Positions 916-20,000 are shown, numbered from the stretch's first letter. The stretch: 20,000 nt of DNA from an uncultured virus (IMG/VR IMGVR_UViG_3300020048_000013) (IMGVR_UViG_3300020048_000013), one strand, 5' to 3'. Numbers and translations are program-made. Notes: generated from the sequence alone by a model not told the origin.

Positions 916-1100
916 GTTATCTCCTTTTCTAATATTATTTCAAAATGATATCTCACGTATCCACGACCATCAAATTCATTACATAAATCTTGTTTTAAAT
1001 TTACCAATCTCCAACCTTTATGACCCTCAGTATTTAAAAAACCTGACATTTCAGGAATAGATAATGTTTTAATTACATATACATACTCATATTTTTTCAT
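912..1100 (-). CDS. DUF4177-like small protein
   Basis: MKKYEYVYV...LNTEGHKGWRLV matches the DUF4177 pattern (yEYk...Ln..G.eGWeLV) as recalled. Confidence 0.55.
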   Translation of the reverse strand: MKKYEYVYVIKTLSIPEMSGFLNTEGHKGWRLVNLKQDLCNEFDGRGYVRYHFEIILEKEIT

Positions 1101-1510
1101 TTATCTTCCTTTTCTAACAAATATTGATGATTATCTATTTCACACTCTACTTCCATATCTTTCATCCACGATTTTTTGACTCCTTTCATAACATAATGCG
1201 AAGATTTTATCGTGGGTCTAAAGTTGTTATCATACATATGAACAGCAATAATTAAAGAAATCATAAAATCTAAATTTCTTTTTTCAATTTTCTTCATATT
1301 ACCTTGTATCAGAATCCATTCATTATAACACGAAAATTGTTTGGGTTTTAAAATTATATCTGCATATGTTTTTGTGCTATCTTTTTTTACAATTTTATCG
1401 TATCTGTTTTCAATTACTGAAGCAACTGCAAGTTTTCCTGTAATAGATTCATGCAACGCTTCACTAAATATTGTGAATGCAATGAGTAATATTTGAAATA
1501 TTGCCATCAT
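1097..1510 (-). CDS. SleB-like cell wall hydrolase (Hydrolase_2 family)
   Basis: Motifs TIFSEA..ES..GKLAVASVIENR, IILKPKQFSCYN and C-terminal IDNHQY. Confidence 0.8.
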   Translation of the reverse strand: MMAIFQILLIAFTIFSEALHESITGKLAVASVIENRYDKIVKKDSTKTYADIILKPKQFSCYNEWILIQGNMKKIEKRNLDFMISLIIAVHMYDNNFRPTIKSSHYVMKGVKKSWMKDMEVECEIDNHQYLLEKEDK

Positions 1511-1533
1511 AAATCCTCAATTTTAATAAATTT

Positions 1534-2193
1534 TTACCACACCCATTCGTCGCCGCGTCTTGTATTTCCTAATATCTTTTTCTTTAGATTATCGAGTTCA
1601 CGAATAATCCCATCTTTTTGAAGTTTGAGTGTTTCATTTTCTTCTCTAAGTTTTTTAACTTCCGAATTATCATTCATTAATCCGAATGTTGTATTAATTC
1701 CATTTTTAAATATTGCCCATTTTGAGATATATTTATTTAATTCTAATCTTAAAGTTGATATAGTATCGTTTGCTTCTTTCAATCTTTTTTCTAATATTTC
1801 GATTGTTCCGAGTTTGGTACATTCGCCCATGAGACGTGACATAACATATTTTTGCTGTTCTCTTACTTTCCCAGAGCAAATTAATTGAAGTTCTTCTTCA
1901 AAAATATTACTGAGTAAGTAGCTGTGACGTTCGTTAATAATCTGATATTTAATATCATTCATTTCAGATGCTTGACATCTAGAAATACAATAGTCTTGAT
2001 TTTTGTAACGAACCATATCACCCCTTTCGTATTTAGGAATTCTTGTCAAATCTTTAAATAATACATAAATTCGTTCGCCATCTAACCTATCTACTACAGC
2101 CATCACACGATTTAGAACATACACATAACTAAATGATGATATAATTCCCTCAATACTTCCACATTTAACTTTGTCGCCTTTTTTGAAATTCAT
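1534..2193 (-). CDS. Hypothetical protein with two N-terminal KOW/SH3-like repeats and a C-terminal coiled coil
   Basis: FKKGDKVKC and YERGDMVRY repeats, heptad-rich C-terminus, GGAGAGA RBS and promoter upstream. Confidence 0.6.
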   Translation of the reverse strand: MNFKKGDKVKCGSIEGIISSFSYVYVLNRVMAVVDRLDGERIYVLFKDLTRIPKYERGDMVRYKNQDYCISRCQASEMNDIKYQIINERHSYLLSNIFEEELQLICSGKVREQQKYVMSRLMGECTKLGTIEILEKRLKEANDTISTLRLELNKYISKWAIFKNGINTTFGLMNDNSEVKKLREENETLKLQKDGIIRELDNLKKKILGNTRRGDEWVW

Positions 2194-2221
2194 TTTATCT
2201 CTCCTTTTTTAATTTTAAGTA

Positions 2222-2250
2222 AATATAAACAAAAAAAGGGCTAATGTCAA
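2222..2250 (-). promoter_or_regulatory. sigma70-type promoter embedded in a terminator hairpin
   Basis: Minus strand TTGACA (2250-2245), 17-nt spacer, TATATT (2227-2222). Confidence 0.75.
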
Positions 2251-2260
2251 GCCCTTTTTT
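2231..2260 (-). terminator. Intrinsic terminator after the PilX-like gene
   Basis: AAAAAAGGGCT-TGACATT-AGCCCTTTTTTT inverted repeat with a U-tract, 17 nt after the stop at 2278. Confidence 0.7.
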
Positions 2261-2277
2261 AAGTATTTTAAACATTT

Positions 2278-4056
2278 TTATTTTCTTATGACATCATTCC
2301 AATCATTTATCTTACCAAAAGTTGTAGTTGACCATCTATGATTTCTATTCAAACCATTTGGATCTTCGTTTGGATGATCTCCTGGACCACTACCACACAT
2401 TGGTGGCAAAGGCTCGTCGGGTCTTAAATATCTTTGGTCTTGAACAAAAGTCTTAGGCCACTTCTGTGCAGTATCACTTGGACCACTCATAATTTCCTGT
2501 TGGTTGAGAACCATTGTCGGTCCGATATTGATTAAATTCAAATTAGTTCCACCGACACCTTTGGCACTCAACTCACCAAATTTTGTTATATATGCCGTAG
2601 TAGAAAATATAAGTTTTTCATTCGGGAAGTAAATGGGCGGAACTGTTTTAACAAATTCTGCTTCTGTCATTCCTAAACAAGCTATTACAGCAAGGTGACC
2701 TTTTGGGTCATAAGTAATCATATCTTGCCAAATTTTAGTCAATAAAGCAAATGTTGGTTTCTCTAACAGTGAAGTAAATTGTGAATTTAAATAATTCTTT
2801 GTTGCTTCCATTTCATATAGATAAAAATTATCTGTTATTAAAACTTGGTCTTTTTCTGTTACTAAAGTAAAATCATTAGCAGAAACCCCTTGTAAGCTTA
2901 CTGTTCCATATTTTGCAGATACAGCTATGCCTTTATAAGCCCCTGAATAATCACCTATCTCAATAGTTTTAATAAGAGAAGATCCATTATATAATTTGGC
3001 TCTGGTTCTTGCTTGTCCACTTACAAAATAAGTTTCAATTTTTACTCCTACTGCACTACCAACAGCAAATTCCGAACCAATAAAATATGTTTTGTTCTGA
3101 GCTCCGTATTTAACAACATCTTCCCAAGTCCACACTACATTATCAAGGTTGAGTTCTTTTACATTCTTTTCATATCCGCCAAGCAATGAAGTGTTTGCTA
3201 AAGTCACTGCTTCTGCTTGATTAGAAACCTTTGCGGAATTTATACCCAATCCCAAACCATAATCATGAGTAGGGTTGAATAAATTACCATCATTTTTATA
3301 CCAAGAAGTTTGGTCTGCTGCAGATTTAATTTTTCCGTAGAATACAGGTCCTATTTTACCCGAACCAGTAATATAATCAAAATGAACTAATCCATTAAAG
3401 TAACATTGACCATATCTCGTGTCTTGTTCGTTAAATCTTCCTTTAACACCATGAAATCCTGCTCCTGCTAAGGTAGCGTTAATCAATTCGGAATTAATAA
3501 ACGGTTCGAGTTCGCCTTCGAGTAAATAATTATAAACATTCGACAAGCAAATATTAACTGATTGTCCTGTCTTATTATCCTTTGCATATGAATCTAAAAT
3601 CCAAACCGCTTGAGTAGGGAAGCCTTTTCGAGCCCCTTTGTAACGAGCATTATACAATGTATAATCTTCTGTATTCAATTCCAATATTTCGTTTTCTGTA
3701 TTTCCGAATAACAGAGTTGAAGGGTGTAAGTAAACTATATCATTTACTGCCATGTTCTCGCTTTTTGGAAACAGAGATGTGGAAAATTGTTTACTTGTTT
3801 CGTCGTAAGTTTCATTCCCCACTATATAAGGAACGTCGAATCTTTTTCTTGTGCTGTCACTTTGGTTTACCCACCATCTTACATTATAATTAGAAGCACT
3901 TTCTGCCATCCAATATAATTTCAGATTGTCGATATTAGTACTTGTTGCTCTTTGAGTATTTCCTACAAGTGCAAGAAATCCCATCGCCATAATCAATAGC
4001 ACTACGCTAATCATTATCGCCATAATCAAAGAAAAACCTTTTTGCTTTTTCTTCAT
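2278..4056 (-). CDS. PilX/GspK-like large minor pilin (prepilin-type N-terminus, DUF4900-like C-terminal region)
   Basis: Class III signal MKKKQKG|FSLIMAIMISVVLLIMAMGFLALV lacks E5, as is typical of PilX/GspK. It is followed by KLYWMAESA (PilX-N y..AEsg pattern). The C-terminus has FVQDQRYLRPDEPLPP (y.yD.R....PP pattern). Confidence 0.7.
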   Translation of the reverse strand: MKKKQKGFSLIMAIMISVVLLIMAMGFLALVGNTQRATSTNIDNLKLYWMAESASNYNVRWWVNQSDSTRKRFDVPYIVGNETYDETSKQFSTSLFPKSENMAVNDIVYLHPSTLLFGNTENEILELNTEDYTLYNARYKGARKGFPTQAVWILDSYAKDNKTGQSVNICLSNVYNYLLEGELEPFINSELINATLAGAGFHGVKGRFNEQDTRYGQCYFNGLVHFDYITGSGKIGPVFYGKIKSAADQTSWYKNDGNLFNPTHDYGLGLGINSAKVSNQAEAVTLANTSLLGGYEKNVKELNLDNVVWTWEDVVKYGAQNKTYFIGSEFAVGSAVGVKIETYFVSGQARTRAKLYNGSSLIKTIEIGDYSGAYKGIAVSAKYGTVSLQGVSANDFTLVTEKDQVLITDNFYLYEMEATKNYLNSQFTSLLEKPTFALLTKIWQDMITYDPKGHLAVIACLGMTEAEFVKTVPPIYFPNEKLIFSTTAYITKFGELSAKGVGGTNLNLINIGPTMVLNQQEIMSGPSDTAQKWPKTFVQDQRYLRPDEPLPPMCGSGPGDHPNEDPNGLNRNHRWSTTTFGKINDWNDVIRK

Positions 4057-4073
4057 AATTTCACCTCATTTAG

Positions 4074-4367
4074 TTAGTTAATCATATCTAATGCTTTTTT
4101 ATACTCCATATTATCTGGGTATAATTTTATTAAATTTTCTATTGCTGATATAATCATATTATATGTTTTTTCATTTCTCATACCCCTACCAACAATAGTA
4201 TAAGTAAATCCGTTTATTATTTCTTGTGCTGATAAGTTATAATCATTCACTTCTTTTAGTTCTGCCACTGTCGGATTTCTGTATGTGGTTCCTCTAAAAA
4301 TGGTTGGTTTGCTTTCCAAATTTTCTTTTATGAAACTTTCTTTGTAATCTTCAAATATATCTGTCAT
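4074..4367 (-). CDS. Hypothetical protein
   Basis: 97-aa ORF with AAGGAGA RBS. Confidence 0.65.
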   Translation of the reverse strand: MTDIFEDYKESFIKENLESKPTIFRGTTYRNPTVAELKEVNDYNLSAQEIINGFTYTIVGRGMRNEKTYNMIISAIENLIKLYPDNMEYKKALDMIN

Positions 4368-4384
4368 TATTTAATCTCCTTTAT

Positions 4385-4516
4385 TTACCATCTTAAATTT
4401 TCCCAACTACCCAAAAGAAATATAAACCAAACACCTACAACAGCAAGAGCTAAAATTACAAGACCACCGATAATTCCGAAAGTCCATAACAACCAAACAG
4501 GTATAATAATAGTCAT
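4385..4516 (-). CDS. Small single-TM membrane protein (not in the ORF track)
   Basis: MTIIIPVWLLWTFGIIGGLVILALAVVGVWFIFLLGSWENLRW*. The ATG overlaps the upstream stop (ATGA). Confidence 0.6.
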   Translation of the reverse strand: MTIIIPVWLLWTFGIIGGLVILALAVVGVWFIFLLGSWENLRW

Positions 4517-4773
4517 TTTACATCCTTATATTTTTCTATAAATTTGTAAATATCATCAATTGTTTCGACATTTTCAGAAATCCTCCAATAAGGATCTTCG
4601 TTGGTAGGTGTTTTGTGGGTATAAATAATTTTCCAATCATCTTCAGGTAAATACACAAATCTTTTACCATCCACTACCTTTGTAAAACTTTCGTTTATAT
4701 CCTGCATACTTGACGGATCAACCGAATGTTTTGTTGAATACTCCCATCCCTCTTTTTTTAATCGTTCTCTCAT
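4513..4773 (-). CDS. Hypothetical protein
   Basis: 86-aa ORF, tightly packed with its neighbours, AAGGA RBS. Confidence 0.65.
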   Translation of the reverse strand: MRERLKKEGWEYSTKHSVDPSSMQDINESFTKVVDGKRFVYLPEDDWKIIYTHKTPTNEDPYWRISENVETIDDIYKFIEKYKDVK

Positions 4774-5385
4774 TTAGTCAGTATCCTTTTTTATATAATG
4801 ATAATTCTCATAATCCTGTAATCTTTTTATATATTTCATGGATTCTCCGCATTTACCACAAACTTCACCCATCTTATCACTATCGGAATGTTCATATACA
4901 TACCTACACTCGTCACAATTTTCAATTTGTTTATTGACAATTTCTATTACTTTATTTTTCTCTATTTTAACACCTTTTACTACATAAGCAAAAAATATAT
5001 CAGAATCATATCCGCTTTTTCCTCTTAGGTCACCGACCCAAACAACTTGCTCTCAGAAATATGTAATATGCGAATACCCCATTTCCTTTGCTTCTTTTAT
5101 CAAACCATTAAAAATTGCTTGTCTGTCGGATTTAGGCAAGGAATACCAACCATACTCTTTTTTAAAATCTTTAACGAAACCGTCTATCGTTTTATGTTCA
5201 TCTTTATTATGATAACTATAAACATCATCATATATAATAGGAGGGCTGATTGTTCTTACAGCACACATCTTTTCTCCTATAGCCCAATAAGGTTTTCCGT
5301 CTATATACCCACAAGGTTTTTCCAACTCTATAATATCTTCTGAAAATTCATAATCTTTAAGATATATTTCTACTTGTTCGCTCAT
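4774..5385 (-). CDS. Hypothetical protein with an internal in-frame TGA (5053-5055) and a C-terminal CxxC...CxxC zinc ribbon
   Basis: The 110-aa track ORF continues in frame past TGA for 92 codons (EQVVWVGDLRGKSGYDSDIFFAYVV...CDEC...CGKC...KKDTD) to TAA at 4774-4776, which abuts the next ATG. Confidence 0.6.
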
Positions 5386-5403
5386 TTTCCATCCCTTTTA
5401 TTT

Positions 5404-5901
5404 TTACCATATTATGCCGTCTGGGTTTGTTCTGCAATAGAAGGCATTAGTTATATTCGGAATTGTTAATGTTCCACTTGGGTCAATCATAGAAATTGAT
5501 AAATCTATTTCGACCTTATGATATGCTCCTGTTATACTTGTTTTAAACGCGTCATTTATATTGTTTATTTCAAAAGCCTCTGCCCCAATTAGTAAGAAGT
5601 CATTTGAATTTCCATTAGCCGACAATCGCATTATCTTTTCGTTTTGAATAGTCCATTTAGTTATGGTTTTATCTGCATTAAGAATTGATAAGGAAGAGCC
5701 ATCAGATTCCAATTTAGCCCCGCCTTTAACATCTCTACCAATATCCATCATAAGTCTCTGAACATTTGAAGATAACATTGCTTTTCTTGTACTGTCTGAA
5801 CTAATACTGTTTGAATTAGCAATAACATTAACTATTCCCAAACCAAGAAAACCAACAATCAATGCTACGACCATAACCTCAATTAGTGTAAATCCTTTCA
5901 T
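5404..5901 (-). CDS. PilW/GspJ-like minor pilin (prepilin N-terminal cleavage/methylation motif)
   Basis: MKG|FTLIEVMVVALIVGFLGLGI, followed by the helix VQRLMMDIGRDVKGG (PilW/GspJ l..i.rDlr.a pattern). Confidence 0.75.
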   Translation of the reverse strand: MKGFTLIEVMVVALIVGFLGLGIVNVIANSNSISSDSTRKAMLSSNVQRLMMDIGRDVKGGAKLESDGSSLSILNADKTITKWTIQNEKIMRLSANGNSNDFLLIGAEAFEINNINDAFKTSITGAYHKVEIDLSISMIDPSGTLTIPNITNAFYCRTNPDGIIW

Positions 5902-6158
5902 TTTTTCACCATATCGTTAAGTATTGTAGATATAATTTTAATATACTTTCTTTCAGGGAATTTTTTGTTGGTGTCGTTTCCAATATTCCAATGTGAACGA
6001 GCAGTCATCAATAAACTTTTTTCTATATCCAATCTATCATTTTCTATATCTTCTACGGATATATTACCCTTAGATATCTGTCTTTTGAAATAATGATAAT
6101 CGTCATCATCAACACCATTAATGATACTTTCATATATTTCGTTTAATCCTTTTTTCAT
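5898..6158 (-). CDS. Hypothetical protein
   Basis: 86-aa ORF with ATGA overlaps at both ends. Confidence 0.65.
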   Translation of the reverse strand: MKKGLNEIYESIINGVDDDDYHYFKRQISKGNISVEDIENDRLDIEKSLLMTARSHWNIGNDTNKKFPERKYIKIISTILNDMVKK

Positions 6159-6508
6159 TTAAAAACTTCCTCTGGGTCTTCTAAACTATTCGTTCCGTCA
6201 AAAATACAACCTTCTGCTAAAAACTTCTCTATAAAATCATCTGGGGATTGTCCAGGATTTAATGTATGAACAATAAATCCGTTTTCTTCTGTAATTAATG
6301 AATCTTTTTCAGAAACAGCACCATTATATTTTGAACCATATTCCCCAGTAATCTTTTTAGTAACTGGGTCGACATCGCCCCAAGTTCTTTCAGTATAATT
6401 ACTTATGGTTTCAATATAATAATTCTTTCCCGTCTTCAAATCTTTAACAATACATCTTCCAGTTTCGTCTGTATTTGTTAAAAATTGTTTATTGAAGTTT
6501 TTATTCAC
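6155..6508 (-). CDS. Hypothetical protein (resembles a conserved large-phage family of unknown function)
   Basis: 117-aa ORF with DETGR...TGK.YYIE...WGDVDP.T...KY.G...DSLITEENGF. Family resemblance is from memory only. Confidence 0.6.
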   Translation of the reverse strand: MNKNFNKQFLTNTDETGRCIVKDLKTGKNYYIETISNYTERTWGDVDPVTKKITGEYGSKYNGAVSEKDSLITEENGFIVHTLNPGQSPDDFIEKFLAEGCIFDGTNSLEDPEEVFK

Positions 6509-6511
6509 TTC

Positions 6512-6922
6512 TTACTCCGTATCATTAGTGAAAGTTCTTGCTTTCAATTCATTTTTTCCGTTCACTTCTATCCATTCTACAGTTGCTTCAATTTCTGTCG
6601 TTGGAGTGGTTGGTGTCGGGTGTAATAGTCTTGTTGCTCTAAATGTCAACAAATATTCTCTCGATTGATTTTCTGCTAAATATTTTGTTATAACTTTAGG
6701 AGTTGTTGAATAAGGAATAACAAAATCCAACAATGCTGTTGCTGTTGATAGTCTTTGAATTTCCTCGAAGTGTTCGTTTATTATTAGTGATGCGTTTGTC
6801 AAATTAGAATTATGAATCTGTAATCTTTGACAATAAACAAACGACATTAACATCCCTGTTATTGTGATTACTAATATCAGGGATGTTACGAGTACTTCTA
6901 TTAATGTAAATGCTTTCTTCAT
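6512..6922 (-). CDS. PilV/GspI-like minor pilin (prepilin N-terminal cleavage/methylation motif)
   Basis: MKKA|FTLIEVLVTSLILVITITGML, then ASLIINEHFEEIQ and C-terminal EIEATVEW (PilV-like v.V.V.W strand). Confidence 0.75.
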   Translation of the reverse strand: MKKAFTLIEVLVTSLILVITITGMLMSFVYCQRLQIHNSNLTNASLIINEHFEEIQRLSTATALLDFVIPYSTTPKVITKYLAENQSREYLLTFRATRLLHPTPTTPTTEIEATVEWIEVNGKNELKARTFTNDTE

Positions 6923-6930
6923 ACTATTAT

Positions 6931-7371
6931 TTATAAAATAAATTTAAAGTTGACATTTGATTTTATATGACTAAAAAGAAATTTTCCGTCATTCTGTAGA
7001 GGAATTTCTAACGTAAAAACATACTTAGGAATATCTTCTTTACTCTTTACTGTCAAATTAGTAATCATGACTTTTATAAACTGTGCTTCGCAATAAGGAA
7101 CATTTTCCGATTCTATTTCAGAAAACATGACACTTGTGTTTATCGTTGTCTGATCACCAAAATCTACACTTAAAAATGGCATTGGTTGAATATTTAATAA
7201 TGTAGATGCTATTGCAGAATTAAATTCTGTTAAAGAATCATAATCAATATCATCAGATTCTAATTTAACTTTATAAATTTCGAATCTTTCTTTTTCTCCA
7301 CTACCATTAGTTTCTATTTTAGCACCAGCAGATACCGATGTTATTTTTCCTGTAAACATTTTATTAAACAT
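6931..7371 (-). CDS. Hypothetical protein
   Basis: 146-aa ORF overlapping the upstream gene by 8 nt. Confidence 0.65.
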   Translation of the reverse strand: MFNKMFTGKITSVSAGAKIETNGSGEKERFEIYKVKLESDDIDYDSLTEFNSAIASTLLNIQPMPFLSVDFGDQTTINTSVMFSEIESENVPYCEAQFIKVMITNLTVKSKEDIPKYVFTLEIPLQNDGKFLFSHIKSNVNFKFIL

Positions 7372-8472
7372 TATATTTCTCCAATTCTTCTTTACTGTTT
7401 TTTACTTTAAGATAAGATGATGCATTAGTAATACTATCCAACACTTCCATTTCTTTTTTAAATGGATTTAATATAATAGTCGGCATTATTCCAGACGAAT
7501 CATTGAATCCCAGTTGTCTTGTATATGGATCAGCGACCTTATAACTAGAAGGTCTAATTGCAACTCTTCTCTTGCCTTTCCAATTAAATAATTCCCAGGC
7601 ATCTTCATGATTATGAGCAACAATTACAATATCAGAATCATAAACACCATTTCTCAACAATTGTTTTGCACAATTTGTTAAATTTATGTTACTTTGATGT
7701 GAATATTTGTGTCTCATATAAAGCTCATAAGATACTCCAGAAGGAAATTCGAAAGTTATGAGATATTGATGACTACAATAATGCACTTTATTATCCTTCA
7801 CCAAATTTCCAACAATATCTATTCCAGAAACTTGTTTAGATCTCAAATCATGATTTCCGCCAACAACAGCAAGAATTTTTTCTGCCGTCATTGTATTAAT
7901 CCAATGAGTTAATAATGCAGTTTGTTCTTTTGGACTTGTCGTNNNNNNNNNNTCGTAGCATTAATAACTGCTTCCTGCATCTTAGAATTGATAAAATTAT
8001 CTATCAAATCTCCAGCATGAATTACTCCCAAATAATCGCTATTTCTGATAGCTTCAGCATCAATTCTCATTTTTTCATAATCACAACCTTCTCCGCCGAT
8101 ATGAGAATCTGATAGAACTACGATTCCAAAAAACTCATCGTATGGTAATTTCACAACAAGCTTATCATCTTTTTTCCAATCATCGATATATAATTTAGAT
8201 CGATATTCCATCTGTCTCCAAAATTCTTCTCTTTCTTCTTCTAAAACTTCGTCGGGTTTAATATTGTCTATAAAAGTAATAGGCAATCTTTTTGACTGAT
8301 TATTAATTCTCACATTATGTGACAATTTATTATCTTTTATACAACATCTGACTGATTCGGCAGTCGTTCCCAATTCCCTTGCTATTTTTTCATATTGTCC
8401 GTTTAATCCTAGGACCAATGGATTTTCTTTCAAATAATTCATCAATCTAATTTTCAAATCACCTTTTGCCAT
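7364..8472 (-). CDS. N-terminal HTH plus calcineurin-like metallophosphoesterase (one gene, split by the scaffold gap at 7943-7952)
   Basis: HTH-like YEKIARELGTTAESVRCCIK; phosphoesterase motifs SDSHIG, GDLID, GGNHD, RH and AHNH. TCGT is duplicated on both sides of the N-run, and collapsing it gives the in-frame junction INATTSPKEQTALLTHWINTMTAEK. Confidence 0.75.
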
Positions 8473-8554: not shown

Positions 8555-9824
8555 TTATTTACTCAACTTTTCCGTAATTCCAAGAAGCATGTTGATGCCA
8601 ATTGCATCCATAACACTGTTACTTCCGCCTTTACCATCTCCGCCACCCATAACAATAGTAGGAACTTTAACTTTTGCTAACTCTGCAGCCACACCAACTT
8701 TGGTCTTATAATCCCATTCTGCTCTTTCTTGTGGAGNNNNNNNNNNATCTACTTGCTTCGGAATCAGCTTGTCCTCTGAAAATTGTAGCTTTCTTTTCTT
8801 CTTCTGCTTGTTTAGCTTGTAACTGAGCAACTTTATATTCCTGTTCAGCTTTTATAACTCCAACTTCATATACTTTCTGAGCATCAGTAACTTCTTTAAC
8901 TTTTTCAACCTCTCTTGTATATTTTGCAGTAGCCACATTCGCTTTACCTTGTTCTTCTGCTGTGATAGCATCCTGTTTAGCTCTTAATGCTGACTGTTTT
9001 GCAAGTTCTGTTTTCATTGCTTCATTCTTTCTTGCTGCAATTTGTTTTTTAACTTCATCATCAAAATCAGGTATATCAATTACACATTCCGCAACTTCAC
9101 AACCAAGTTCCTGTAATCTTGTCGGAACTCTTTTTGCTGTTCCATCTTCATTATATACAATAACAGTAACACTCTGTTCTACCATTTCGCCTGTTGCTAT
9201 ATTTTCAACTTTAACAACTTCTTTCTTAGTTACATAAATACCATTTCTTAATTGGTCATCAACTGATTGCTGAAATAATGCGACATTTGTATAAGCATCC
9301 TGTGCTGTTCTTAAATTGGCGGATAGTTTAATAGCATTGTTTACAATAGGAACTACACCACTTCTAATAAAATGCTCATAACCACCTTCATAATCTCTTT
9401 TTAAAACCAAACATCCTTCAGTAGTTGTGGGCAATTTAACCCTAACAAGACCCGATATTTTAGCAATAGAACCATCATTAAATATAACATCTACTGGAAC
9501 CGCGCCTTCACCAACATCAGCAATATCACCAGCACCGAATCTCAAAGTAGCCACATTTCTATAAGTATCAATAGTACCAAATCCTTGAATATACAATCCT
9601 GGATTGTGTCTCACAGACATAGTTCCCGACCAAGCCGCCTGTTTAATCTGAAAATGCCCCGCTTTATTAGTTTCCCATATTTTACCCGAAAATATTACTA
9701 ACATTATCAGTCCTATAGCAACAACACCCATAAGAACAGATTTTTTGATTGATAGTTTCGACCAATCGAATTTATTATATTTGTTAACTGTGTCGTCTGA
9801 TTCTTCTTCTCTATTGAATCCCAT
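8555..9824 (-). CDS. SPFH / band-7 / prohibitin-domain membrane protein (one gene, split by the scaffold gap at 8737-8746)
   Basis: N-terminal TM, SPFH core (PVDVIFNDGSIAKISGLVRVKLP), Ala/Glu/Lys coiled coil. The C-terminus PQERAEWDYKTKVGVAAELAKVKVPTIVMGGG resumes after the gap. Confidence 0.8.
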
Positions 9825-10838: not shown

Positions 10839-12260
10839 TTATTGTAATCTTTCTGTAATGACATCATACATTTTATCGTTAAGAGCATTCATCATGATAC
10901 TTACTGGTGTAAATTCTTCTGCTCCTTTCAATATCGATTTTAATGTTGATGCATCGCCACCGCTAACTAATGCTACATCTTTAGTGGTTGAGTTTACAGG
11001 AACATTTCCGATTCTTCCGTTAACATTCCAAAAAACTACTTTAGGAACTTTATATCCAGCATTTTGATAATCCATTTTGAATTTATCATATGCTGTTAAA
11101 GTACAGTGACCATCAAATTCCATATCGGAGATTATTAACAGCATTGTTGGCATATCACTTTCTGATATGTTATTTTCGACGGCTTTTGTTAACACCATTC
11201 TGAAAACAGCATCCAAATCTGTGTTATTGCTAATGAAACCAACACTTCTTAGTTGACGAAATCTTTCTGTCACACTTCCCTGTATATATTGCATTTTTGG
11301 CTTTCCTGAGAATGTCACAAATGCATCTTTAAAAATCGATTTGTTTCTTTCTGATATATAAACCCCAAGAGATACTGACATCGCCATTGGCAAACCGTCG
11401 TTGGAATTCATACTATCACTAACATCACAGATAGGAAGTATTCTTTCGTTAGAATCAGTCATATAATCAGGCAAACAAGACCATTGTGCGTCTATGGAAT
11501 TAGTATCTGCTCCTCTCATAAAGCTTCTATATATATCATAAGGAAATATATCTTTAGCTTTTATCATTTTTATACCTTGTTTAACTGCAGTTTTTGCAAT
11601 TTCGATAAAAGACTTAAATCTTCCTTCGTCGTTTCTATACCACGCAGTACGATATTTATTAAAAGCTACTCCTGGTATTTGGCTATAATTGATATCAGAC
11701 CATTTTTTTGCACACATTAATTGTTCTACTGTTTTAGAACCGTCTGCAATAATTTTTCTATATTTAGATGCGCTCATGCCAGTGTAGTTAAGAAACTTTA
11801 ATCTGAAACCATTATATGTTTTGTTGGTTCTAGGCAACCATTTACACAAAAGTCCATTACTCATGTTGCGTGATACCAAATTATAAACTTGTGGTGTTTG
11901 GATGTGAAACAAACTATCCCATCTATTAAATTCTGGAACTAGGTCAAAAAGCTTATAAAACACTTCTTGGTCTTTGTTGTGTATCCAATTTAAAGCTATA
12001 CGGAAAAATCTTCTTTCTCCTTTTCCGCCTCTAATATTTCCACCATGAAAAATTGCTTTGAGTGTCAGTAAACTATCTTCTACCCAAGATCTTTCAATCA
12101 TAGCTTCTATATCAGAAACCGACATTGTTCTAGATGCACCAAGAATAAAATAAAGGTCTAAAACACCATTCAACGAAGTCGAATTTGTAAGACCGCCATT
12201 AGCTGTTAATGCGTCTTTTTGTCTTGCTACATTTACTAATACTGATTTGCTTTGTGCCAT
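10839..12260 (-). CDS. DUF2828-type protein (Ro60/TROVE-related helical domain plus vWA domain)
   Basis: Motifs TANGGLTNSTS...LDLYF, RGGKGERRFFR, LLCKWLPR, VEQLMCAKKWSDINYSQIP, MIDAS-like CDVSDSM, NTDLDAVF, IISDMEFD and GYKVPKVVFWNV. Confidence 0.8.
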   Translation of the reverse strand: MAQSKSVLVNVARQKDALTANGGLTNSTSLNGVLDLYFILGASRTMSVSDIEAMIERSWVEDSLLTLKAIFHGGNIRGGKGERRFFRIALNWIHNKDQEVFYKLFDLVPEFNRWDSLFHIQTPQVYNLVSRNMSNGLLCKWLPRTNKTYNGFRLKFLNYTGMSASKYRKIIADGSKTVEQLMCAKKWSDINYSQIPGVAFNKYRTAWYRNDEGRFKSFIEIAKTAVKQGIKMIKAKDIFPYDIYRSFMRGADTNSIDAQWSCLPDYMTDSNERILPICDVSDSMNSNDGLPMAMSVSLGVYISERNKSIFKDAFVTFSGKPKMQYIQGSVTERFRQLRSVGFISNNTDLDAVFRMVLTKAVENNISESDMPTMLLIISDMEFDGHCTLTAYDKFKMDYQNAGYKVPKVVFWNVNGRIGNVPVNSTTKDVALVSGGDASTLKSILKGAEEFTPVSIMMNALNDKMYDVITERLQ

Positions 12261-16928: not shown

Positions 16929-17555
16929 TTATAATACCATTTTTTCGATTTCTTCACGAACTCTTTCGGCAATTGTATTAACATATGCGCAAGTGAACAT
17001 TGTTCTTACTGCTTTCAAATCTTTTTTAGCAGGAGCAAATCCTTTACCAATAAAACGATAAAATCTAAAAATGCGCAAATAATCTTCCTGAATTCTATCC
17101 TCTGCTTTCCCTACAAATCTTAGAGTTTTTGTTTTAATATCATCTAACCCTTTTCCTGTCGGATCAACAAATTCCCCATTATCAAGTTTATAATAGATAG
17201 CGTTGATAGTAAAATCCCTTCTCTGAGCATCTTCAAAAATTGTTCCCACAGATACCGAATCGGGTCTCCTGCCATCAGAAGTTTTGGCATCGGATCTAAA
17301 ATTAGCAATTTCATATTGAACTCCATCTTTTGCAATATTCAATACCAGGAAGTTTTCTCCTGTTCTACTCACAGCCCATCCTGCTGTTGTAAATATCTCA
17401 TCAAGTTTATCATAGGGAATATCAGTAACGAAATCATAATCTTTCGGTATTTTACCAATTAGACTATCTCTAACACAACCACCAACAAGATAACTCTCTG
17501 TCGAATATGTAGTAAGTATCATTCTTATTTGTAGTAATTGTTGTTCTAGTTTCAT
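16929..17555 (-). CDS. Short class II tRNA nucleotidyltransferase (CCA-adding enzyme / poly(A) polymerase head and neck)
   Basis: YLVGGCVRD, DYDF, EIANFRSD...GRRP, DAQRRDFTINA, RFVG, and the templating motif EDYLRIFR. Confidence 0.85.
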   Translation of the reverse strand: MKLEQQLLQIRMILTTYSTESYLVGGCVRDSLIGKIPKDYDFVTDIPYDKLDEIFTTAGWAVSRTGENFLVLNIAKDGVQYEIANFRSDAKTSDGRRPDSVSVGTIFEDAQRRDFTINAIYYKLDNGEFVDPTGKGLDDIKTKTLRFVGKAEDRIQEDYLRIFRFYRFIGKGFAPAKKDLKAVRTMFTCAYVNTIAERVREEIEKMVL

Positions 17556-19913: not shown

Positions 19914-19925
19914 CTTTATTTTTAG

Positions 19926-20000
19926 CGGAAGGTGGGAGATTCGAACTCGACCAAGGCTTTTTACACCCGACAGTTTTCAGGACTGCTTTCCATACCCATT
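19926..20000 (-). tRNA. tRNA-Ser(UGA), 5' end outside the window; atypical C33 and weak T-stem; no encoded CCA
   Basis: Anticodon arm GCAGU-CCUGAAA-ACUGU, long variable arm, T-loop UUCGAAU, 3' acceptor ACCUUCC with discriminator G. Confidence 0.7.

Follow-up and report, generated by a model that had tools for sequence, protein, structure and literature searches.

Background

Phages block pili by small inhibitors or swap one pilus subunit. In the F10-like phages of Pseudomonas aeruginosa, a prophage FimU (P-FimU) replaces the host minor pilin, enters the pilus and blocks tip-binding phages, and virulent phages also carry pilin-like genes (PMC12952977). As described in that report, P-FimU and the PilA-like proteins are encoded by single genes, for an H-class minor pilin or for a major pilin. 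In the GspI-J-K and XcpV-W-X pseudopilus tip complexes of type II secretion (PDB 3CI0, 5VTM) and in PilV-W-X of type IVa pili, the order is small, middle, large, and the top subunit lacks Glu5. The competence pilus of Thermus thermophilus has ComZ (PDB 6QVI, 6QVF), a large prepilin-type cap made up of a GspK-related pilin domain and a solenoid like those of ice-binding proteins, which is encoded with small minor pilins (PilA2, PilA1 and PilA3) and for which a tip position has been argued (PMC6561018).

The locus described here lies in a 20-kb stretch of DNA (the window) from a contig of 197 kb. Like the P-FimU and PilA-like genes, it would place a structural component of the host pilus on a phage, but that component is a putative complete cap-and-primer set of three genes, and it is found on a ~200-kb phage of an uncultured phylum.

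Arrangement of the minor pilin genes

Three prepilin-type ORFs were present on the minus strand, in both the sequence and its translations, where the sequence-only reading had placed them (Table 1). All three proteins carried the prepilin signature: a short basic leader ending in Gly or Ala (-1), a hydrophobic residue at +1, Glu5 except in the tip subunit, and then a hydrophobic helix of ~20 residues. There were no other prepilin-type N-termini in any frame of the window among ORFs of at least 25 aa. Each of the three had conserved homologs, whose order was kept in the 16-19 related loci with enough sequence; the trio is far beyond chance. The proposal that these genes form a minor pilin set in canonical I/J/K order was borne out by the motifs, the predicted folds and the gene order in related loci.

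The tight overlaps described earlier are real, with 4-base gene overlaps at 5898-5901 and 6155-6158, and the interleaved ORFs are not pilins. One of these, the 86-aa ORF that overlaps the W-like gene, was 95% identical to an ORF at the same position in a related contig, L010 (4644-4898). The ORFs in the W-like/cap interval had no Pfam or PHROG match and no blastp counterpart in L010 or in a second related contig, L001. In each of the three phage-like loci, the metallophosphoesterase was the conserved neighbor upstream of the trio, its homologs lying at 2458-3531 in L010 and at 4028-5347 in L001. At the other end of the cassette, the terminator-like hairpin lay 18 bases past the stop codon of the cap pilin gene. 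Domain searches of the window found no assembly ATPase, platform protein, prepilin peptidase, secretin or major pilin, in agreement with the sequence-only reading.

Table 1. Features of the minor pilin locus in the window
Feature	Position	Strand	Remarks
Metallophosphoesterase (phrog_7339)	7364..8472	-	frame broken by 10-N mask at 7943-7952
V-like small minor pilin	6512..6922	-	136 aa; GspI/PilV position
Two small non-pilin ORFs, V-like/W-like interval	5898..6508	-	6155-6508 (117 aa), 5898-6158 (86 aa)
W-like minor pilin	5404..5901	-	165 aa; predicted GspJ/XcpW fold class
Four small co-oriented non-pilin ORFs, W-like/cap interval	4074..5385	-	5053-5385 (110 aa), 4513-4773 (86 aa), 4385-4516 (43 aa, hydrophobic), 4074-4367 (97 aa)
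Predicted ComZ-type cap pilin	2278..4056	-	592 aa; beta-solenoid insert at ~181-546
Terminator-like hairpin	2232..2260	-	11-bp stem then T run; consensus match only

Predicted structures of the three proteins

The largest protein begins with Lys-Gly followed by FSLIM, that is, with Gly at -1, Phe at +1 and Met rather than Glu at position 5. Thirty homologs were found, and K6 and G7 were invariant across 25 cap homologs. The AF2 model (pLDDT 84, pTM 0.73) had a helix at 6-63 plus a sheet, and its best Foldseek match was ComZ (6qvi, E 1.7e-5; VIA Z 13.5, rmsd 11.3 over 339 residues). The pilin domain resembled GspK at Z 6.2 and XcpX at Z 5.4 (VIA), and the solenoid matched ice-binding proteins at Z 12.3-12.7, with an rmsd of ~3 A over 183-195 residues. 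A terminal strand (574-582) comes after the solenoid insert, which is the topology of ComZ. The large protein is thus modeled as a cap pilin of the ComZ type, with a beta-solenoid set into the pilin domain. The likeness is one of predicted fold, as sequence identity to ComZ was ~9-10% and there was no sequence-level match, and it extends to the company of small minor pilins; the present set differs also in its location on a phage.

The sequence-only reading had called this protein PilX/GspK-like, an identity that did not hold up. The GspK model NF037980 gave a weak match (14.3 bits, E 0.022) to the N-terminal 51 residues only, far from the cut-off of 130, and there was neither an N_methyl match nor a match to any Pfam family at E<=0.01, PilX_N included. 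The insert of GspK is helical, whereas that of the cap is a beta-solenoid. Membership in the classical PilX_N/DUF4900 or GspK families was ruled out by the profile scores together with the ComZ-like model.

The W-like protein starts with MK, has Gly at -1 and continues with FTLIE (Phe at +1, Glu at +5), and it passed both N_methyl (22.6 bits, cut-off 21.2) and TIGR02532 (21.0 bits, cut-off 16.3). Its AF2 model (pLDDT 82.5) had a helix at 6-59 plus a sheet, so that the lollipop fold, a long N-terminal helix on an antiparallel sheet, was seen in both the W-like and the cap models. The best fold match was again a Thermus pilin, TTHA1219 (5g23, Z 9.6), followed by XcpW (Z 8.9, rmsd 2.7 over 107 aligned residues), GspJ (Z 7.9) and EpsJ (Z 7.8), and unrelated proteins began at Z <=5.9. 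All five top matches were minor (pseudo)pilins, and three of the five were GspJ homologs (XcpW, GspJ and EpsJ). As modeled, the W-like protein has the fold of the J class of minor pseudopilins (GspJ/XcpW), although its score against the GspJ equivalog TIGR01711 was 15.8 bits and did not reach the cut-off of 64.85.

The V-like protein has the leader MKK and Ala at -1, then FTLIE (Phe at +1, Glu at +5). It fell short of N_methyl (PF07963; 17.6 bits, cut-off 21.2) and of TIGR02532 (15.3 bits, cut-off 16.3), whereas cellular V and W homologs scored 25.8-35 bits on N_methyl. Of the profile matches anticipated earlier, then, N_methyl was above its cut-off for the W-like protein and below it for the V-like protein, and PilX_N was obtained for none. 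The V-like protein aligned with 15 homologs at 31-63% identity, and its profile matches among PDB sequences were confined to the helix. The PilV equivalog TIGR02523 gave 14.3-20.4 bits against a cut-off of 52.2, with the V-like protein at 14.3 and an N-terminal match only, so all three members of the set miss the equivalog cut-offs that mark GspK, GspJ and PilV.

Modeling the three proteins together, as had been suggested, yielded a predicted heterotrimer that outscored the controls (ipSAE 0.82 with the V-like protein scored as partner, best control 0.33). Contacts agreed between runs at 84% or more, and partner pLDDT was at least 80, with the V-like protein at 80-82 within the complex. Of 157 solved complexes, 116 attained the mark used for such predictions, as did 2 of 215 mismatched pairs. 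In the predicted geometry the small subunit touches both of the others, as in GspIJK and XcpVWX; the size of the V-like protein, its first position in the operon and these contacts fit the GspI/PilV class. Binding of a small partner pilin, besides DNA, is a trait of ComZ-type caps; an interface of the cap with the V-like and W-like proteins is predicted here. The prediction resembles solved GspIJK-type complexes, and the pass may reflect that likeness. The set shares with GspIJK and PilVWX the small-middle-large order, the predicted GspJ fold of the middle subunit (Z 7.9-8.9) and the top subunit without Glu5, but differs in that it is found with neither an H-class (FimU/GspH) nor a PilY1 gene.

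Cellular relatives of the phage genes

A compact form of the trio cassette was found as a chromosomal locus in Delongbacteria-like bacteria, on contigs as long as 901 kb with housekeeping genes, between conserved neighbors: a NIDO-like protein upstream, and GAF and DUF1385 downstream. Six of the eight genome matches were to Candidatus Delongbacteria. Among five Delongbacteria genomes, T2SSE-family ATPases and prepilin peptidase were present in all five and secretin in four, one locus read PilT-PilB-PilC-like, and each genome had only 3-7 N_methyl pilins. The family is narrow, with 96 representative clusters at E<=1e-3 among 1.84 billion and cellular homologs confined to it; these were 33-52% identical to the phage set. 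Because the same cassette is a conserved locus in Delongbacteria-like genomes with full pilus machinery, the phage set is host-derived, and the cassette is clearly cellular in origin. The ~200-kb phage lineage probably infects Delongbacteria-like bacteria.

The phylogeny against host pilins that had been suggested placed two phage lineages apart, which indicates that exchange occurred more than once. The phage cap copies retained 45-52 of the 53 columns that were invariant in 14 cellular rows. In the small pilins, Ala was found at -1 in five of the six phage proteins and in none of the 25 cellular ones, this Gly being otherwise invariant. Identity in the cap solenoid was 0.39 between phage and cell and 0.37 among cells; the phage cap is thus no more divergent than cellular caps are from one another, and there is no specific sign of epitope escape.

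Proposed role of the set

The reading that we prefer, with a probability of about 0.45, is that ~200-kb phages carry a type IV pilus tip and priming complex that derives from the host and is competent for assembly; the host would assemble it, giving tip replacement of the exclusion type. During infection, all three prepilins would enter the inner membrane, and the host prepilin peptidase would cleave each one after its residue at -1 (Gly or Ala). The proteins would join through their globular domains and N-terminal helices to form a heterotrimer, topped by the cap that lacks Glu5, and the host PilB/PilC machine would extend the major pilin below it; new pili would therefore bear the phage-encoded tip and not that of the host. 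Processing and assembly by host machinery, with pili gaining a phage-encoded tip, is the most likely fate of the set. The purpose, by analogy with P-FimU, is probably superinfection exclusion, extended to the whole tip: pili would still work, and the epitope for tip-binding phages, the phage's own kin included, would be removed. It is possible, though doubtful, that the set has gone further and become a full, working viral tip, swapped with the host more than once, that takes over pilus binding and in which the change from Gly to Ala in the two small subunits, seen in both phage lineages, is adaptive. If so, altered processing kinetics might, for example, let the phage set outcompete its host counterpart at the assembly platform or outlast it there.

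The near-complete retention of positions invariant in cells, and the carriage of an entire set rather than one component, would also suit an auxiliary role, in which the phage, by supplying a priming complex that is rate-limiting, keeps pilus activity going or raises it during a long infection once host gene expression has fallen, with a gain through adhesion, motility or, for nucleotide supply, DNA uptake. In Vibrio cholerae, overexpression of minor pilins sharply raises pilus dynamics, which the discussion of that report ties to faster DNA uptake (PMC13249403); ComZ binds DNA (PMC6561018); and the window also encodes the nucleotide-metabolism genes NT5C and a phosphoesterase. Set against this, extra pili would expose the infected cell to more pilus-dependent phages, and we regard such a boost as somewhat unlikely.

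The Ala at -1 raises another possibility, that the phage pilins jam the system by occupying the peptidase and platform while priming poorly, so that piliation collapses, leaving competitors that depend on pili unable to adsorb. Phage proteins that shut off pili are known, for example Aqs1 and PlzR. However, Ala at -1 is described as an accepted residue for prepilin cleavage (PMC3244431), and a jammer needs neither three intact, conserved proteins nor a confidently predicted, native-like trimer, which makes jamming improbable.

Phage context of the cassette

No capsid, portal or terminase genes were found in the 20-kb window, and the trio family is otherwise cellular, so it might be asked whether the contig is a cellular, plasmid or symbiont fragment with the trio as its own minor pilins. 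Because of this absence, the viral nature of the contig rests on context. Twelve of the 32 ORFs in the window had PHROG matches, an endolysin among them, and the ORFs are dense, small and on a single strand. The best matches of neighboring genes were uncultured huge or jumbo phages. The region is phage-like, as first proposed. L001, a relative, comes from IMG/VR (CheckV completeness 12% for 26 kb) and carries a phage replication module, and the window has neither housekeeping genes nor pilus machinery. A non-viral contig is very improbable.

The earlier view that the trio was assimilated rather than being a chimeric fragment is supported by several observations. GC3 was 0.24-0.26 in the trio and 0.21 in other phage genes, as compared with 0.40-0.48 in 12 of the 14 copies at other loci with cellular or unclear context; GC3 in the trio is fully ameliorated to the phage value. 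Logan contigs spanned every checked junction between pilin and phage ORFs at 99% identity or more (for example 2169-2603, 3906-4302, 4779-5909, 6369-6786 and 6585-7008). Of the checks proposed for a viral contig, sequence continuity was supported at the junctions checked, but terminase and capsid genes were not found in the 20-kb window. The arrangement recurs at the same site in L010 and L001, making three diverged contigs in all, and the trio copies of the window and L010 are all intact at 59-63% identity. The trio is embedded in phage DNA and is not misassembled. A host fragment that was captured recently as passenger DNA, or misjoined in assembly, and that plays no part in the phage would account for genes that are clearly host-derived, but is scarcely credible given the ameliorated GC3, the phage ORFs interleaved with the pilin genes, the bridged junctions and the retention of the cassette at one site in diverged contigs.

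Implications

A complete phage-borne pilus tip set was not found in the literature searched. The statement that no phage tip-complex set has been described stands for the complete set, but single components, P-FimU and PilA-like proteins, have already been published (PMC12952977). With the host-assembled phage tip that we favor, the known swap of one pilus part would be extended to the whole tip, in the form of a three-protein starter-and-cap set.

The tip of the filament governs phage adsorption, adhesion and DNA uptake. If a large phage does carry a complete, conserved cap-and-primer set, viruses are able to redefine the working end of a filament made by the host. If the phage tip does take over binding, the phage would decide what host pili bind, be it other phages, surfaces or DNA, and the set would represent a new class of host-takeover module in which the whole filament-priming complex is replaced, rather than one subunit being swapped or an inhibitor made. 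The phage and host versions of this three-protein complex form a natural paired data set for asking how tip complexes remain compatible with an assembly machine. The trio also provides a gene-based host link between a ~200-kb phage lineage and Candidatus Delongbacteria, a phylum of which no member has been cultured.

Sequence identity and predicted complex of the three proteins

The three pilin-like ORFs of the minus-strand trio were present exactly as the sequence-only reading gave them. A terminator-like hairpin lies downstream of the last gene. In the Pfam and TIGRFAM models of the prepilin motif, the middle (W-like) protein of 165 aa scored above the cut-offs, and the small (V-like) protein of 136 aa fell slightly below. 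Assignment of the large protein (the cap) to PilX/GspK retained a weak N-terminal GspK-like match and failed at the GspK equivalog model; none of the trio proteins matched the equivalog models GspK, GspJ or PilV. Regular-expression matching across the six frames of the window turned up no further prepilin-type N-terminus among ORFs of at least 25 aa, and matches of the three query profiles to PDB sequences were confined to the N-terminal pilin helix.

The AlphaFold2 model of the cap, built from a 25-row alignment, was confident (pLDDT 84, pTM 0.73). The only significant Foldseek matches (E ≤ 0.001) were three chains of a single entry, Thermus thermophilus ComZ, with a best E of 1.7e-5, and ComZ also ranked first in an all-against-representatives search (Z 13.5). 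After it came ice-binding beta-solenoids, matching residues 181-546 (Z 12.3-12.7, rmsd about 3 Å), and the rest of the model matched pilins and GspK/XcpX (Z 5.4-6.2). The phage cap thus shows both likenesses reported for ComZ, a pilin domain resembling GspK and a solenoid resembling ice-binding proteins, an architecture argued in that report to be compatible with a pilus tip position only (PMC6561018). The five best matches of the 165-aa model (pLDDT 82.5) were all minor pilins or pseudopilins, namely a Thermus type IV-like pilin (Z 9.6), XcpW (8.9), GspJ (7.9), EpsJ (7.8) and S. sanguinis PilB (7.7), and unrelated rows reached at most Z 5.9.

The proposed association of the three proteins was borne out in prediction. 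With the three chains modeled from their alignments and the small protein as the scored partner, the heterotrimer reached 0.82 versus 0.33 for the best control, with at least 84% contact agreement between runs and a partner pLDDT of at least 80. In the predicted trimer the small protein contacts both partners. The mark used was attained by 116 of 157 solved complexes, compared with 2 of 215 mismatched pairs; solved complexes of this kind exist, and the pass may reflect that likeness. Because the folds and predicted complex are I/J/K-like while the equivalog models were not matched, these models suggest that the trio would work like an I/J/K set outside those sequence families.

Viral context of the window

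All sizeable ORFs in the window were on the minus strand and densely packed, with frequent 4-base overlaps and a GC content of 30.9%. PHROG matches were found for 12 of the 32 ORFs scanned.

Features of the window around the pilin trio
Feature	Coordinates	Strand	Remarks
Endolysin-type cell-wall hydrolase	1097-1510	-	PHROG match
Cap, 592 aa	2278-4056	-	
Small ORF	4074-4367	-	
43-aa ORF	4385-4516	-	Strongly hydrophobic
W-like, 165 aa	5404-5901	-	
86-aa ORF	5898-6158	-	
V-like, 136 aa	6512-6922	-	
146-aa ORF	6931-7371	-	No Pfam or PHROG match
Phosphoesterase	7364-8472	-	PHROG match; 10-N mask inside
10-N mask, phosphoesterase gene	7943-7952		
SPFH protein	8706-9824	-	PHROG match
10-N mask, SPFH gene end	8737-8746		
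TROVE/DUF2828 'RNA-binding protein'	10839-12260	-	PHROG match
tRNA nucleotidyltransferase	16929-17555	-	PHROG match
tRNA gene 3' part (by eye)	~19925-20000	-	Cut by window end

In tblastn searches the nearest relatives of the TROVE-like protein were uncultured huge phages (43% identity to LR756501, 735 kb), followed by jumbo Vibrio phages; for the SPFH protein LR756500 (462 kb) came first and crAss-like phages next. The parent contig is 197,135 bp according to its protein database record. Context thus assigns the window strongly to a virus, and a non-viral contig is very improbable. The whole window had no megablast match among 50,697 phage records, an exact 36-base stretch of it was not found among viral contigs, and a single-protein scan of viral contigs gave four pattern matches and no relatives. 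ARAGORN reported no tRNA genes in the window. A sigma-70-like promoter scan was uninformative (46 sites versus 41.0 ± 7.1 expected). The phosphoesterase appears split into 7364-7891 and 7909-8472, perhaps through the mask; in two further phage-like contigs, L010 and L001, its counterpart is a single gene (357 and 439 aa, respectively).

Retention of the cassette in phages

The trio adjoins the phosphoesterase gene in L010 and L001 as well. L010 (14.5 kb, 30% GC) carries SPFH, nucleotidyltransferase, endolysin and phrog_14949 homologs that are 72-90% identical to those of the window, and L001, from IMG/VR, has genes for polymerase, primase and nuclease (CheckV completeness 12% for 26 kb). Third-position GC of the window trio (0.24-0.26) lay near that of other window genes (0.21 ± 0.03), and values of 0.40-0.48 were found in 12 of 14 cap genes from other loci of cellular or unclear context. 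Continuity of the assembly held: Logan contigs from two runs of one study, which may be the source sample, spanned every pilin/phage-ORF junction checked and covered 30 of 30 window bins at 99% identity or more. In run X3 16 of 30 bins were covered, the uncovered parts counting as no evidence. A run from a second study held a 90-99% relative of portions of the cap and V-like genes, with loose ends at the borders of inserted small ORFs, a weak indication from single contigs. Fourteen cellular rows share 53 invariant columns, of which the phage caps retained 45-52. The phage copies of the trio are therefore embedded and maintained, and passenger DNA or an assembly chimera is the least credible account of them. 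An unusually divergent phage cap head was considered and rejected, as solenoid identity was 0.39 phage-to-cell versus 0.37 cell-to-cell.

Alanine occupied position -1 in three of three V-like and two of three W-like phage proteins, rows that represent two or three lineages only, and in none of 13 V-like and 12 W-like cellular proteins. Alanine is an accepted prepilin cleavage residue at this position (PMC3244431), so it need not prevent processing.

Small ORFs lie among the pilin genes. The 86-aa ORF that lies between the V-like and W-like genes shares 95% identity with its counterpart in L010 (4644-4898), and the flanking pilins are 61-63% identical, which suggests that this ORF spread recently or that the pilins changed faster. 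A similar N-terminal motif (..DIFEDYK..) was seen by eye in the small ORF at 4074-4367 and in L010 at 3874-4227 and 4916-5164, around pilin genes; no blastp match at E ≤ 1e-4 connected these ORFs. The 43-aa ORF, flanked by small ORFs, may encode a small membrane protein.

Cellular origin and exchange of the cassette

A word-indexed search returned 30 cap homologs, and the cap profile found 96 sequences at E ≤ 1e-3 and 22 at E ≤ 1e-30 among 1.84 billion representatives, indicating a narrow family. Loci from three collections had the same small-middle-large cassette wherever sequence sufficed. Most were cellular, on contigs of up to 495 and 901 kb with 40-46% GC and housekeeping and signaling genes nearby, and their neighbors were conserved: GAF and DUF1385 genes downstream, with NIDO-like and CarboxypepD_reg genes upstream on the opposite strand. 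The eight genome matches comprised six Candidatus Delongbacteria, one UBP11 and one Bacteroidia. Among five cassette genomes, all encoded T2SSE-family ATPases and prepilin peptidase and four a secretin, with just three to seven N_methyl pilins per genome. One host-like locus had the order PilT-family, PilB-like ATPase with receiver and c-di-GMP-binding domains, and PilC/GspF-like platform. Judging from these loci and machinery genes, the cellular trio is predicted to prime assembly of a type IVa-like pilus and form its tip, the motor genes lying at a separate locus.

Several further features of cellular loci were observed. In L022 a PilB-like ATPase (1486-3633, minus strand) has a fused N-terminal receiver domain and an MshE-type c-di-GMP-binding motif. 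Some Delongbacteria-like genomes have paired pilin cassettes side by side (L008, 5447-8609 and 8992-11836; L020, 2642-4449 and 6680-9455), and the third protein of the second L008 trio is 713 aa. Matches of 27-32 nt to the window in genomes G002, G003 and G005 were rejected as CRISPR spacers, since no repeat arrays occurred at the five stretches examined; the best short match was a shared start-region motif. The 146-aa ORF immediately upstream of the V-like gene has homologs in two Delongbacteria-like genomes (49-55% amino acid identity) in a conserved chromosomal setting, beside release-factor-like and radical-SAM-like genes recognized by eye only. It has no counterpart in L010 or L001, and an Atlas search gave only sub-threshold leads; the phage may have acquired it from the host independently of the trio, which would give an extra host link.

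A quick maximum-likelihood tree was inferred for 36 cap proteins, leaving out database homologs identical to loci, two rows shorter than 550 aa and partial loci L015-L018. The window clustered with L010 and database homologs P0002 (encoded on a 214-kb contig), P0003, P0005 and P0006 (support 100), and L001 with P0015 fell inside a different clade, alongside L011, which has a cellular neighborhood. A constraint uniting all eight, a group chosen after the tree was seen, was rejected (p-AU 0.008), and both small-protein trees likewise parted L001 from the window and L010. These split phage lineages indicate that the cassette was exchanged with cells more than once. The cassette site is identical in both lineages, and repeated exchange perhaps took place via replacement at this fixed site.

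Possible function in the phage

Single pilus components on phages have already been published (PMC12952977). A complete three-gene cap-and-primer set on a phage was not found in the literature searched. Table S3 of that paper, which covers phage pilin-like proteins, might list more phage pilin genes. In tblastn with cap and W-like queries against 50,697 phage records there was no match to either and no complete set.

Of the roles considered for that set, it is doubtful, though conceivable, that it sustains or boosts pilus activity, a role in line with the increased pilus dynamics reported on minor-pilin overexpression in Vibrio cholerae (PMC13249403). Dominant-negative jamming of the pilus, raised by the sequence-only reading, seems unlikely. 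The favored reading, to which we give a probability of about 0.45, is by analogy with prophage FimU (PMC12952977): the phage trio would be an assembly-competent replacement for the pilus tip that uses the peptidase and motor of the host, and its pay-off would be superinfection exclusion.
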